Origin: Nitrospirota bacterium
Lineage (GTDB): Bacteria; Nitrospirota; UBA9217
DNA: 64,000 nt
Assembly (NCBI GenBank): GCA_963663225.1
Contig: OY760142.1
Span: forward strand, 1,600,001 to 1,664,000
Direction: 5' to 3'
Below, one piece after another: positions 34,969 to 48,901 of the stretch. The position numbers and the translations under genes are program-made. Below the pieces are notes generated by a model. That model saw only the letters and a program-made list of their open reading frames with translations, did no database searches and was not told the origin of the DNA. Positions within the stretch are counted from its first letter, which is position 1. The number at the start of each line of letters is the position of its first letter.

Positions 34969-35991
34969 TCAGGCCTTGCCAGCGAGGCGTCTCGCCTCCT
35001 CGATGACTACGTCTTCCTGTGTAGCCACGACCTTGCGCTCCCCCAGACGAAGCACAAGTTTCCGCGGGTCGCACCCGTATTCCTGGGCGGCACGTTTTAT
35101 GGGCAGGACATACCCGCCGTAAACGCATGCATAGCCCATCATGATCGAATCGTTGTCGACAGTAGGCATGGGCACCTTCGCCAAATTGGGATATTTGTTC
35201 AATTCCGCTACAAGAGTTGCTGCGGCGTCCAAAATGCCGAAGAGGTCGACTTCCGTGGGAAATCCCCCCCTCTTGAGCGCGGCCACCAGCGTTTCGGTTT
35301 GGGCATTGCCGGCCCCGCCGCCGAATCCCTTCAGACTTCCATCCACATAGGCAGCCCCTGCCTCGACCGCCGCAAGCGAATTGCCGATCGCCAACCCCAG
35401 GTTATTGTGGGCATGGAATCCCACCGGTATTTTTACCGCCTGGCGTACCGCCGCGATGTATGCCTTGACCTGGTGGGGCACCAAATACCCTTGAGAGTCC
35501 GCCAAGTTGATATACTGTGCGCCGTAAGACTCCATCTTCCTCGCTTCCTCGGCGATACGTTCCGGAGAAGCCATGCCGAACGAGATCAGATAACCGACTG
35601 CGAGCATATTCAATTTTCTGGCGAGCTGGATGTGCTGTTCAGTTATGTCCGCCTCCGTGCAGTGGCACGCGACCCTTGCCACCGTGACGCCCAAATCATG
35701 GGCCTGTTGCAGGTCATCCATCGTTCCGAAACCGGGTATCAAGAATATTGCTACCTTCGCTTTCTTTACCGAGGAGACCACGGACTTGAGCAACTCCGCG
35801 TCGGGGGCGGCTGTCCTCCCAACGTGGATGGAACTTCCTCCCGATCCATCGCCGTGACCGACTTCGATCATGTCCACACCGGCGGCTTCGAGAGCCGTCG
35901 CCAGCTTGGACATCAACACGGGCGAGAACTGCTGACGGACGGTATGATTGCCATCGCGAAGCGTAACATCTACAACAGTAAGCTTATCCAT
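34969..35991 (-). CDS. 4-hydroxy-2-oxovalerate aldolase family (DmpG/MhpE-like)
   Basis: DVTLRDGNH, IEVGHGDG, HCTEAD, LADS, GFHAHNNLG, GAGNA, GYACVY. Confidence 0.9.
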   Translation of the reverse strand: MDKLTVVDVTLRDGNHTVRQQFSPVLMSKLATALEAAGVDMIEVGHGDGSGGSSIHVGRTAAPDAELLKSVVSSVKKAKVAIFLIPGFGTMDDLQQAHDLGVTVARVACHCTEADITEQHIQLARKLNMLAVGYLISFGMASPERIAEEARKMESYGAQYINLADSQGYLVPHQVKAYIAAVRQAVKIPVGFHAHNNLGLAIGNSLAAVEAGAAYVDGSLKGFGGGAGNAQTETLVAALKRGGFPTEVDLFGILDAAATLVAELNKYPNLAKVPMPTVDNDSIMMGYACVYGGYVLPIKRAAQEYGCDPRKLVLRLGERKVVATQEDVVIEEARRLAGKA

Positions 35992-36874
35992 TGTTTGTCT
36001 TCCTTTCCGTCAAGAGACTCTCCGCGTAGCGCTCAGCAACGTTAACAGCCGCAGCGGTAATGATATCGAGGTTTCCGGCATACGGGGCCAGATAGTCGCC
36101 CGCGCCGGTCACTTCGATGCAGGTCGTGAAATGATCGCCGTCCAGGAAAGGCTCGACCGTAATCTTGTATCCGGGAACATACGATTTGATCTTCTCAGCC
36201 ATGGCCATAACCGAGTCATGGATGTTCTTCTCGTCCGCCGGAAGATCAACCGTGACATAGACCGTGTTGCGCATGATGATGGGCGGATCAGCGGGATTGA
36301 GCACGATGATGCTTTTCGATTTTTTCGCACCGCCGATGTCGTGAACGCTCCTGGCCGTGGTGCGCGTAAACTCATCGATATTATGTCTGGTGCCTGGACC
36401 GGCGCTAAGGCTTGCGATAGTGGATACGGTTTCCGCATAGTGGACAGGGCTGACCTGGTTGATGGCAGCCACGATCGGCACTGTCGCTTGTGCACCGCAC
36501 GAAACGAGATTGACATTGGGCTTCGTTGAATGCTCTTGGAGATTCACGACAGGGATGACACCCGGACCTACGGCGGCTGGAGTCAAATCAACGGCGATAA
36601 TGCCCGCTGCCTTAAGGCGTGGTGCATGTGCGAGGTGAGACCGCGCCGAAGTCGCGTCGAACACCAATTTGATTTTCCCATTATTGTGGAGGATGCCCTC
36701 GATCCCGTCCACGCAGGTTTCATAACCAAACTTGCATGCACGCGCCAAGCCCTCCGAGGCGGGATCTATGCCCGCGACCATCTTCAGTTCGAGTAGCGCG
36801 CTTCGGCGTAACTTGTACATAAGGTCCGTACCGATATTTCCTGACCCCAGGACTGCAACAGGCAATTTTGCCAT
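35984..36874 (-). CDS. Acetaldehyde dehydrogenase, acylating (DmpF/MhpF-like)
   Basis: GSGNIGTDL, VFDATSA, DLTPAA, catalytic SCGAQAT, SAGPGTR, YAGNLDI; overlaps the aldolase start. Confidence 0.93.
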   Translation of the reverse strand: MAKLPVAVLGSGNIGTDLMYKLRRSALLELKMVAGIDPASEGLARACKFGYETCVDGIEGILHNNGKIKLVFDATSARSHLAHAPRLKAAGIIAVDLTPAAVGPGVIPVVNLQEHSTKPNVNLVSCGAQATVPIVAAINQVSPVHYAETVSTIASLSAGPGTRHNIDEFTRTTARSVHDIGGAKKSKSIIVLNPADPPIIMRNTVYVTVDLPADEKNIHDSVMAMAEKIKSYVPGYKITVEPFLDGDHFTTCIEVTGAGDYLAPYAGNLDIITAAAVNVAERYAESLLTERKTNNG

Positions 36875-37090
36875 ACAATTCCTCCCTTGTGCTATGTTAT
36901 GTCATCAAGCAGCGGCGAGAGCTTCGCGACACAAACACCCTTCGCTTTCGAATCATGTTTCTTTTGCATATGAAACCTATCGGTCAAGATTGAGATCGCT
37001 GGACGGTGGCCCATCCGGCGTGCGTCGCGCGATTTTTAAACCGATCAGGCACATTCACAATGATCAACGGTGCCACTATAATAAAACGAT

Positions 37091-38023
37091 TCAATCTCCC
37101 TCTGCGCATTTAGCCGCAACATAGTCTTTAAGCGATCGGACCTTTTCGTCACTGAGCTTTGCTTCTGCCATGCAATAATCCCGGCCAAGGAACTCGTACT
37201 TGGATTTGCCGATCCGGTGATACGGCAGGAGTTCGCAACTCACCTTCTTCATTCCTTTGATGAAGGAGAGAATTTCGCCGATTTCCTCTTCTGAATCGTT
37301 GAGGCCGGGAATCAGCGGTATTCTGGCGAGTATGTGAAGCTGGGGAAACGCAGCTCTCAGTTTCCTGAAATTTTTGAGAATCAGTTCATTCGAAACACCG
37401 GTAAAGTTCTTGTGCTTGGTGTCGTTCATGGTCTTGATATCAAAAAGAATAAAGTTAAGGTGGCGGCCGACTTCTTCAAGAACGCCCCAGTCCGCGAATC
37501 CGCATGTTTCAATCGTACAGTCAATATGCCGACGCCGTGCCTCACGAAGAAGCGCCAGGGTGAATTCCGGCTGCATCAGCGGCTCACCTCCGCTGATCGT
37601 CAGGCCCCCGCCGGAACGGGCATAAAAGGCGCTGTCCGCCTCCACGATCTTGAGCACCTCAGGAACCGACATGTGCGTACCAAAGATGTGCAGTGCCTGT
37701 GATGGGCAGATGTTCACGCAGGCAAAGCAGCTGCTGCAGATCTCGCGGTTAATCGTGATCGTTCCATTTTTTGAAAGCCCGATTGCTTTCTCGCCGCACA
37801 CCTCATTGCACATGAAGCATTCCTGGGCACCGATGCACTTATTGGGATTGTATGCGAGTTCAGGCGACAGGCGCTGTGATTCGGGATTGCAGCACCATTC
37901 ACAGCGAAGCGGACAGCCCTTCAAAAACACGATGGTACGTATACCGGGTCCGTCGTGCAATGAATAATGCTGTATATTGAATACGCAACCCTTTATTATG
38001 CTGTCGGGCTGGGTCAATGCCAT
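37091..38023 (-). CDS. Glycyl-radical enzyme activating enzyme (IslB-like)
   Basis: HDGPGIRT, GCPLRCEWC, two ferredoxin-type Cys clusters, SGGEP, LLPYH; GGGAGG RBS before ATG 38023. Confidence 0.93.
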   Translation of the reverse strand: MALTQPDSIIKGCVFNIQHYSLHDGPGIRTIVFLKGCPLRCEWCCNPESQRLSPELAYNPNKCIGAQECFMCNEVCGEKAIGLSKNGTITINREICSSCFACVNICPSQALHIFGTHMSVPEVLKIVEADSAFYARSGGGLTISGGEPLMQPEFTLALLREARRRHIDCTIETCGFADWGVLEEVGRHLNFILFDIKTMNDTKHKNFTGVSNELILKNFRKLRAAFPQLHILARIPLIPGLNDSEEEIGEILSFIKGMKKVSCELLPYHRIGKSKYEFLGRDYCMAEAKLSDEKVRSLKDYVAAKCAEGD

Positions 38024-38045
38024 CCGCATCCTCCCGTGCTGCAAG

Positions 38046-47742: not shown

Positions 47743-47760
47743 GGCTGCTGTGGTGACCAG

Positions 47761-47955
47761 ATGGATAAATCACATGCCGTGCTTCGCGCTATCATGATCA
47801 CGACGGCCGTATTGGCGGCTGTATTCTCCCTTCTTGCAAGCGTGGCCCGCGCCCGCGGAGCGCCGGGTAAAATTGTCACCATGCTTTATTACTCTGCGTA
47901 CGGCCTCATGTTTATCAGCATTATTCTCTTTATCCTTATCGGCATGAATGGATGA
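47761..47955 (+). CDS. Small hypothetical protein with two TM segments
   Basis: 64 aa, two hydrophobic helices, 18 nt after the ATPase stop. Confidence 0.6.
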   Translation: MDKSHAVLRAIMITTAVLAAVFSLLASVARARGAPGKIVTMLYYSAYGLMFISIILFILIGMNG

Positions 47956-48088
47956 CTCCTTGCGTGAGACAGCCGGTGCGAGTCTTGAACATGGGTTGAG
48001 GCAGGCCGTACCGATTCCGTATGCTATCCTTCGCCGGTGAGAATGCCGCGCTTCCTACTTTTGCTGTTAAGAACTCGGAGAATGGTTT

Positions 48089-48901
48089 TTGAGTGACATT
48101 GTATATGCCAGCATAATCATCGCGATCGCTTCTTTTTCGCAGTCCATCGCAGGCGTCGGCTTCGTGATGGTTGCCACGCCGTTTCTGCTAGCCATCCTGG
48201 ATGTAAAAGACACGGTACTGATAACGTTTGCTCTCTCTGTCATATGTCAGATTCTGATTGTCTGCAGACACTGGCGCATGGTACATCCGCAAATGTTCCT
48301 GAATTTTGTGCTTGGAAGCATGTTCGGTGCGTTTCCCGGCCTTTGGCTCTTTTCGGTTGCAAGTCTCTCGACTCTGAAATTCATTATAGGCCTTACGCTT
48401 CTTTCAATTTCTTCTTTCACGCTCTATAAGCTGAAGTCCACATGGAATATGATCGAGAACACTACATCATACAGGAGAACACCCGAATCTCCGTTCGTAT
48501 GGAATATAAGGGCTCTCAGGCGAGGCATCACCGACCTTCAGGGACAGGCGCAACTCTTCGTCGGATGCGCGGCGGGTTTTTTCGGGCCAAGCATTGGAAT
48601 GCCGGGCATCCCCCTCACGGTATATTTTAGTGCAGTTAATATGGATAAGGACGTCGCGCGGAGCACGACCCTTTCCTTTTTTATTGTTATCTGCATGGTC
48701 ACGCTTCTGGCAAATTACAGCGCAGGCAATATCACCCCCACAGTCATCCGTGTTGCACCTCTTCTGGTACCGTCGGTCTTGGTTGGCATGGTGGTGGGAA
48801 ACTTGGTTTTTCCCAAAATATCGCAGCGATGGTTTCAGTTAATACTGAATCTGATTATACTGTATTCTGCATGCAAAATTCTGTTCGAATACTGGCAGTA
48901 G
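48089..48901 (+). CDS. Sulfite exporter TauE/SafE family protein
   Basis: QSIAGVGF..VATP and GFFGPSIGMPGIP halves, ARST; multi-TM; TTG start after GGAG. Confidence 0.85.
   Translation: MSDIVYASIIIAIASFSQSIAGVGFVMVATPFLLAILDVKDTVLITFALSVICQILIVCRHWRMVHPQMFLNFVLGSMFGAFPGLWLFSVASLSTLKFIIGLTLLSISSFTLYKLKSTWNMIENTTSYRRTPESPFVWNIRALRRGITDLQGQAQLFVGCAAGFFGPSIGMPGIPLTVYFSAVNMDKDVARSTTLSFFIVICMVTLLANYSAGNITPTVIRVAPLLVPSVLVGMVVGNLVFPKISQRWFQLILNLIILYSACKILFEYWQ

Follow-up and report, generated by a model that had tools for sequence, protein, structure and literature searches.

The region described here lies at positions 34969-48901 of a stretch of 64,000 nucleotides (hereafter, the window) from a Nitrospirota bacterium, and carries a gene cluster in which a glycyl radical enzyme (GRE) of the isethionate sulfite-lyase type stands upstream of a DmpFG-type pair, that is, an acylating acetaldehyde dehydrogenase (DmpF) and a 4-hydroxy-2-oxovalerate (HOV) aldolase (DmpG). 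On the minus strand, read 5' to 3', the order is a PAS-sigma54 activator, the GRE, its activase, a gap of 216 nt, dmpF and dmpG, the last two overlapping by 8 nt. Divergently, on the plus strand, are found a substrate-binding protein, two permeases and two ATPases of an ATP-binding cassette (ABC) importer and a TauE-family gene (Table 1). On examination of the open reading frames (ORFs) with Pfam and NCBIfam, every coordinate and orientation in the gene list of an original prediction for this DNA was borne out. The position of the cluster at the transfer-messenger RNA (tmRNA) gene ssrA, a second GRE-DmpFG locus in the same genome and the second ATPase gene of the importer go beyond that prediction.

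Table 1. Features of the sulfonate cluster and its borders, in window coordinates
Feature	Position	Strand	Basis or remark
tmRNA gene (ssrA), left island edge	34374..34725	+	ARAGORN, tag ANNQELALAA; Rfam RF00023 199.5 bits
Strain-specific insertion, ~14.4 kb, whole sulfonate cluster	34728..49111		Comparison with same-genus genome G050
DmpG-type 4-hydroxy-2-oxovalerate aldolase, 340 aa	34969..35991	-	HMGL-like + DmpG_comm
DmpF-type acylating acetaldehyde dehydrogenase, 296 aa	35984..36874	-	TIGR03215 413 bits, cut-off 282
Activase-dmpF gap, 216 nt	36875..37090	-	
GRE-activating radical SAM enzyme, 333 aa	37091..38092	-	TIGR02494 360.4 bits; Radical_SAM + ferredoxin-type clusters
Isethionate sulfite-lyase, IseG/IslA type (predicted), 827 aa	38098..40581	-	PDB scores, residues
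Sigma54 -24/-12-like element, GRE	40662..40677	-	AGGCATGACTCTTGCT, identical in L004
PAS-domain sigma54-dependent activator, 479 aa	40946..42385	-	Sigma54_activat 223 bits, PAS, HTH_8
Sigma54 -24/-12-like element, ABC operon	42885..42900	+	TGGCATTCATCTTGCT, identical in L004; similar in L006
NMT1/SsuA-family substrate-binding protein	43079..44188	+	Under all curated NCBIfam cut-offs
ABC permease 1	44215..45111	+	BPD_transp_1
ABC ATPase 1	45036..45998	+	ABC_tran 118.4 bits; Walker A repeat
ABC permease 2	45862..46842	+	Pfam family scan
ABC ATPase 2	46873..47742	+	ABC_tran
TauE/SafE-family membrane protein, putative sulfite or sulfonate exporter	48089..48901	+	PF01925 112 bits

The GRE contains the PFL-like domain (PF02901, 622.4 bits) and the Gly_radical domain (PF01228, 95.9 bits), with the glycyl radical motif RxxG present as RIAGYSA at 799-805. 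When compared with proteins of solved structure, it scored highest against IseG (5YMR, 1356.8 bits), followed by IslA (7KQ3, 1257.5) and HpsG (6LON, 1199.5), and the best entry for the choline lyase CutC was far lower at 528 bits. According to Xing 2019 (PMC6453916), the sulfonate of isethionate is bound in IseG by Arg187, Gln191 and Arg676, and Ile190, Thr310 and Phe680 make van der Waals contacts with the substrate. In the alignment the triad is intact in the window GRE as R186, Q190 and R675, and the contact residues as I189, T309 and F679; the catalytic Cys-x-Glu loop is C465-S-E467 and V677 is likewise kept. The pattern R186, Q190, T307-G308-T309, C465, E467, R675, V677, F679 is shared by all 84 aligned GREs (that of the window, 79 from genomes and 4 from metagenomes), with the Ile190 equivalent at 189 occupied by I, L or, in a single row, V. 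By all sequence criteria applied, the GRE is an isethionate sulfite-lyase (IseG/IslA), in agreement with the type originally predicted. We infer that it cleaves isethionate to sulfite and acetaldehyde, a chemistry shown in relatives that are about 75% identical.

The recurrence of the GRE-DmpFG pairing, for which a neighbourhood search had been suggested, was examined in genomes using the best 80 of 393 IseG-clade GREs, 79 loci of which were evaluated, and in metagenomes using DmpG. Amongst the genome loci, dmpFG was found within 10 kb of the GRE in four, L004, L036, L040 and L041. L004, from a Nitrospiraceae-titled metagenome-assembled genome (MAG) of the window's own phylum, retains the island complete and in unchanged gene order, with proteins that are 73-88% identical. 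The remaining three are Syntrophobacterales-type, and in each of them a SarD-like Fe-alcohol dehydrogenase adjoins dmpFG. The metagenome scan returned 80 loci, with DmpG identities of at least 78% in 8, 64-65% in 2 and 51% or less in 70. Four of the 8 closest loci show GRE, activase, dmpF and dmpG in a row; the remaining four comprise two that are too short for a judgement, a 6.4-kb contig without a GRE and L086, considered further below. No GRE at all was seen in the 72 more distant metagenome loci. The pairing therefore recurs in eight further loci besides the window, spread over two phyla. Full-text literature searches found no description of an IslA/IseG-DmpFG pairing, an architecture that the original prediction did not know from the literature either; neighbourhood tables in the supplements to Xing 2019 and Peck 2019 may list such cases.

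Phylogenetic trees suggest that this association is not a single event. In the DmpG tree, built from 85 rows without the partial L093, a single clade of 12 with an SH-aLRT value of 99 takes in every one of the nine IseG-linked proteins. In the GRE tree, which has 9 linked and 50 unlinked rows besides 25 that could not be judged, the linked GREs are instead scattered over four places, and the linked state needs at least four changes. One DmpFG lineage was thus joined repeatedly to different IseG lineages, as is expected of a functional cassette, and such repeated combination makes co-inheritance alone hard to credit.

A related arrangement is provided by L006, another Nitrospiraceae-titled MAG, whose GRE is 79% identical to that of the window and which has the same regulator, importer, TauE, GRE and activase. 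Downstream of GRE-activase it carries an amidohydrolase, an RnfC/Nuo51-like protein and a EutE-type acetylating acetaldehyde dehydrogenase (TIGR02518, 654.9 bits, cut-off 620.1). Since a EutE-type enzyme stands downstream in L006 and one of at least 65% identity occurs in 8 of the 79 genome loci (more distant Aldedh proteins in 16), DmpFG is placed where other lineages carry the textbook acetaldehyde sink. Other components of the cluster are shared as well: the sigma54 activator is 79% identical to its counterpart in L004 and 73% to that in L006, TauE is 73% and 69% identical, respectively, and homologs of the binding protein (55-88%) adjoin the GRE in 8 of the 79 loci.

Both proteins of the pair look functional, as they pass the equivalog cut-offs and keep the catalytic residues. 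DmpF contains the AcetDehyd-dimer domain (PF09290, 182.2 bits). Its scores against 7Z3S and 1NVM_B are 351 and 285.5 bits, respectively, and the Cys in its VSCGAQ segment aligns with the catalytic Cys of CGGQAT in 7Z3S, 4JN6_B, 4LRS_B and 8IH7_B. DmpG scores 391.4 bits on TIGR03217 (cut-off 286) and comprises the HMGL-like barrel (PF00682, 177.8 bits) and the communication domain (PF07836, 71.5 bits). Its residues R12, D13, H16, H193, H195 and Y291 align with R17, D18, H21, H200, H202 and Y291 of the characterized DmpG, which we take to be the catalytic and metal-binding residues, and all six are kept in the 14 rows formed by the sulfonate-linked clade and its sister pair. These same 14 rows share a Y-G-G-Y motif beside the catalytic Tyr that is seen in 0 of 71 other DmpG homologs, 60 of which show Y-S-S-F at this position. 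DmpG and DmpF are equally conserved across the clade (in comparison with L041, for example, DmpG is 92% and DmpF 87% identical), and therefore the aldolase does not appear to be decaying. DmpG is better regarded as an intact, co-evolving partner of DmpF, to which it may contribute stability, allostery or an entry port for acetaldehyde.

Genome-wide checks were carried out on the organism's own genome (G000; one contig, 3.255 Mb, 98.99% complete). No match to the bacterial microcompartment (BMC) shell family PF00936 was obtained in it, the only Aldedh (PF00171) match was weak (52.9 bits), and the EutE-type protein of L006 gave no match by tblastn. By these searches the genome is without another acylating aldehyde dehydrogenase of the EutE/AdhE type, and the absence of BMC shell and AdhE/EutE genes, noted earlier for the window, holds genome-wide. 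The BMC-free design itself is not new, however, as Burrichter 2021 (PMC8667426) already describes Desulfovibrio IslAB systems that do without a BMC. The earlier statement that no other meta-cleavage genes lie nearby was supported in part: no HOV-supplying hydratase is present among the Pfam and NCBIfam gene assignments of the island, and the two FAA_hydrolase genes (the meta-cleavage hydratase/decarboxylase family), at 115 kb and 1169 kb, are far from both dmpFG copies of the genome and at least 450 kb from that of the window, though no search was made for extradiol dioxygenases. The genome also has a dsrA-family match over the cut-off, with one in-frame TAA, and an acetate kinase gene (ackA). 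Since close SarD-like and Tpa-like homologs are lacking in the genome (best 32% and 36%), isethionate rather than taurine is the likely substrate, and a taurine route in this genome was rejected.

A second dmpF copy occurs outside the window, in a cluster at G000:C1:461046-468681 (locus L083, 9046-16681) with the order MFS transporter, DmpF2, DmpG2, GRE2, activase and isochorismatase-like hydrolase. GRE2 is of diol-dehydratase type: its nearest relatives are B12-independent glycerol dehydratase (1R8W, 731.8 bits) and propanediol dehydratase, and it has no NCBIfam equivalog. The two DmpFG pairs are 57% (DmpF) and 44% (DmpG) identical to each other. The congener G050 has a 99% identical GRE2 with a DmpF2-like gene next to it at equal spacing; among 401 genomes of the phylum, GRE2 was detected in G000 and G050 alone. 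Thus both predicted aldehyde-forming GRE loci of this genome adjoin a DmpFG pair.

The location of the cluster points to its acquisition. The genome of G050, a member of the same genus, is 94% identical to the window up to 34727, immediately behind ssrA, and matches again at 49112-49163. This site is occupied in G050 by 8.9 kb of unrelated DNA, in which an IS3-type rve fragment, an antitoxin-like gene, a short-chain dehydrogenase/reductase (SDR) and a flavin reductase were recognized; because the cargo differs between the two genomes, the 3' site of ssrA is considered an island hot spot. No IseG ortholog was detected in 63 other genomes of the family, and DmpF occurs in 5 of the 401 genomes of the phylum, G000 included. 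The window DmpG is closer to the Syntrophobacter-type copies (92-93%) than to the copy in L004 (84%). No integrase was identified in the island, where the ORFs taken as genes all have other family assignments, and the terminal 20 nt of ssrA do not recur at the far border, even with up to 3 mismatches allowed, the sole repeat being a 15-nt AT-rich one. By these genome comparisons, the cluster was acquired as a module of 14.4 kb, inserted at the ssrA hot spot. Next to its right border, a carbon-nitrogen hydrolase gene (49219-50358) lies between the shared promoter-like stretch at 49112-49163 and a DapB_C-domain gene, and has no counterpart there in G050.

Two sigma54 -24/-12-like elements were recognized, one 80 nt upstream of the GRE start and the other 180 nt upstream of the binding-protein gene; elements similar to the former precede the GRE in L006, L036, L040 and L041. 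The gap between activase and dmpF contains neither such an element nor a terminator-like site on the minus strand. The ~60 nt that lead up to dmpF are conserved throughout the clade irrespective of what stands upstream (window 36875-36950; L036, L040, L041, L085-L087, L089), and include a partial palindrome, GCGGCGAG..CTCGCCGC, in L040 and L086; a consensus RNA fold of this leader was unsupported (3 weak pairs, -1 kcal/mol). Co-transcription of the GRE with dmpFG is plausible. Within the importer, the annotated reading frames overlap, and in-frame alternatives indicate that the true start of ABC ATPase 1 is probably 45108 or 45120, and that of ABC permease 2 probably 46027, after GGAGG.

Considering these observations, we regard it as likely that the region came in by horizontal transfer as a self-contained isethionate-respiration module, in which DmpFG provides the step from acetaldehyde to acetyl-CoA. 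The PAS-sigma54 activator would turn on the two sigma54 promoters, and isethionate would be taken up through the ABC importer. The activase would place the glycyl radical on the lyase, which would then split isethionate into sulfite and acetaldehyde. Sulfite could be reduced by the Dsr system, any excess being exportable by TauE. DmpF would oxidize acetaldehyde with CoA and NAD+ to acetyl-CoA, a step for which other isethionate users have an EutE/AdhE-type enzyme, whether or not a microcompartment is present, and which DmpF would take over here; acetyl-CoA could yield ATP via acetate kinase. The earlier proposal that DmpFG was recruited as an acetaldehyde sink remains the best reading, in view of the conserved pairing, the dedicated DmpG clade, the EutE-type stand-in in L006 and the lack of another acylating dehydrogenase.

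Such a system would share several features with known ones. With IseG-IseH of D. vulgaris Hildenborough (5YMR) and IslA-IslB of Bilophila wadsworthia and Desulfovibrio it has in common the GRE with its activase, the Arg/Gln/Arg triad, the Thr and Phe contacts, the Cys-x-Glu loop and the predicted feeding of sulfite into dissimilatory sulfite reduction; the lack of a BMC is shared with the Desulfovibrio isethionate systems (PMC8667426). It differs from them in its sigma54-activator control and host phylum, and its importer is of the ABC type, whereas those of D. vulgaris and O. alaskensis are described as TRAP-type (PMC6453916, PMC11668362). In Bilophila the corresponding step is assigned to a BMC-associated acetylating acetaldehyde dehydrogenase, unlike DmpFG here, and the genome studied here, despite its high completeness, gave no match to the PF00936 shell that encapsulates the Bilophila-type GRE system. 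EutE/PduP-type dehydrogenases beside GREs, as in GRM-type loci, resemble DmpF in the proposed reaction and in their place downstream of GRE-activase, as in L006; however, they belong to an unrelated fold family (Aldedh) and have no aldolase partner. DmpFG, BphIJ and HsaFG (1NVM, 4JN6) agree with the window pair in both protein families, domain sets, overlapping dmpF-dmpG order and catalytic residues. Unlike them, the window pair is not surrounded by meta-cleavage or steroid-pathway genes, its DmpG belongs to a distinct clade that is at most 51% identical to the bulk of the retrieved homologs and has YGGY for YSSF, and its aldehyde would come from outside the complex and not from the aldolase.

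If this holds, complexes of the DmpFG type, known from aerobic aromatic and steroid catabolism, would reach anaerobic organosulfonate respiration. They would represent a third way of dealing with the acetaldehyde from isethionate lyases, the other two being a BMC equipped with an acetylating dehydrogenase and sinks that are unlinked. Isethionate respiration would also be placed in environmental lineages of Syntrophobacterales type as well as in a sulfite reducer of Nitrospirota type, between which the compact module appears to move.

Several observations nevertheless weigh against the sink proposal. As 50 of the 59 judgeable IseG loci are without dmpFG, a linked sink is not obligatory, and most IseG loci have no aldehyde dehydrogenase nearby. 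The genome encodes two aldehyde:ferredoxin oxidoreductases and three Fe-alcohol dehydrogenases as possible other acetaldehyde sinks. L086 carries dmpFG of the same clade together with aminotransferases and has no GRE within 9 kb. An intact DmpG is strictly retained, yet a simple sink does not require the aldolase. For free acetaldehyde the Km of canonical DmpF-type enzymes is poor, in the mM range, and the dehydrogenase is able to act in the absence of its aldolase partner; the simple sink model would then not explain this strict retention. Finally, the 216-nt gap parts the activase from dmpF, the corresponding gap in L004 (13489-13558) shows a GC hairpin followed by T8, resembling a terminator or attenuator, and the conserved leader that dmpF has of its own makes its separate transcription possible.

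One way to account for the retained aldolase is that the YGGY-clade DmpG is itself catalytically engaged in sulfonate respiration, the tunnel complex of aldolase and dehydrogenase acting as a protein-scale substitute for a microcompartment that also serves GRE2. The acetaldehyde formed by the GRE may be caught as HOV, as the original prediction proposed, through an aldol addition to pyruvate that a channelled retro-aldol cleavage would then undo; alternatively, the complex may dock to the GRE. In either case acetaldehyde would be passed unreleased to DmpF. We give this elaboration only an outside chance.

The features that separate dmpF from the activase could also belong to a pair that is a mere neighbour of the GRE, independently transcribed and used, for example for HOV from elsewhere, and that came to lie in the island by chance. 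The gap, the leader and the hairpin in L004 would fit such an arrangement, as would the otherwise rare occurrence of DmpF in the phylum. An accidental association is, however, difficult to reconcile with adjacency in about seven lineages of two phyla and with four separate GRE lineages. Neither a hydratase nor any other HOV-forming gene accompanies the pair in the island, and the second GRE of the genome also adjoins a DmpFG pair; we hold chance proximity to be highly improbable. A different question is whether the GRE is in fact the 2,3-dihydroxypropane-1-sulfonate (DHPS) sulfolyase HpsG, whose product would be hydroxyacetone and for which DmpFG would not be the sink. HpsG-HpsH of Bilophila wadsworthia (6LON) belongs to the same subgroup of C-S-cleaving GREs, and the window GRE passes the NCBIfam model NF048011 'SfplDhtHpsGDes' for (2S)-3-sulfopropanediol dehydratase (1549.6 bits, cut-off 1000), just as its activase passes the matching HpsH-type model (463.5 bits, cut-off 430). 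As a control, the GRE of L053 (Nitratidesulfovibrio sp.), an IseG near-ortholog with 1651.9 bits against 5YMR, was found to score even higher on NF048011 (1579.8 bits), which shows that this model cannot separate IseG from HpsG, and the HpsG label was dropped. The score against 6LON is below those against IseG and IslA, and HpsG has Ala and Ile at the equivalents of Thr310 and Phe680, where the window GRE keeps Thr and Phe. An HpsG identity is accordingly scarcely credible. It may be noted in passing that NF048011 and NF048010, named for HpsG and HpsH, score IseG-type lyases far above their cut-offs, and names drawn automatically from the 'HpsG' model can wrongly assign DHPS use.

Another possibility is that the clade DmpFG acts not on acetaldehyde but on a sulfonated aldehyde, upstream of or parallel to the GRE, either with DmpF as an acylating sulfoacetaldehyde dehydrogenase analogous to SauS, or with DmpG interconverting pyruvate and sulfoacetaldehyde with a C5 sulfonated 4-hydroxy-2-oxo acid. 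The YGGY motif beside the catalytic Tyr, confined to the clade and its sister pair, could reflect such a substrate. The neighbourhood of dmpFG in L086 is suggestive as well, consisting of two class-III aminotransferases, alanine racemase, glutamate dehydrogenase and, behind dmpFG, the same ABC importer, and so is the SarD-like protein by dmpFG in L036, L040 and L041, whose best NCBIfam family is sulfoacetaldehyde reductase (428 bits, under the cut-off of 700). Against this, the islands of the window and L004 contain no aminotransferase, reductase or CoA ligase, the genome lacks close homologs of SarD and Tpa as described above, and isethionate cleavage yields only acetaldehyde and sulfite. We know of no natural C5 sulfonated keto acid of this kind. 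The related idea in the original prediction, in which a longer sulfonated keto acid is the substrate that the aldolase cleaves before the GRE acts, found no support, as no further catabolic enzyme is present in the window or L004 islands. A sulfonated substrate for DmpFG thus appears improbable, and acetaldehyde is retained as the likely one.

L086 holds a further protein of 1049 residues (3001-6150), co-directional with the class-III aminotransferase, alanine racemase, clade dmpFG and sulfonate-type ABC importer. It has no match in Pfam, NCBIfam or PDB and could be a new player in aminosulfonate catabolism.

Elsewhere in the window, an ORF of 602 residues (26246-28054) has an HMGL-like aldolase-type barrel at residues 58-330 and a truncated dCache sensor domain at 474-598, and may result from gene fusion, from a frameshift or from an artefact of ORF calling; it is followed on the opposite strand by an Ada-like AraC/methyltransferase gene (28111-28980). 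Radical SAM proteins with a B12-binding domain are encoded on both sides of the region, at 29085-30836 and 53103-54725. Other genes include a LonB/LonC-like protease (4798-7254), a HAMP-GGDEF-EAL protein (8593-10695) and a caspase-domain protein (60396-61727).

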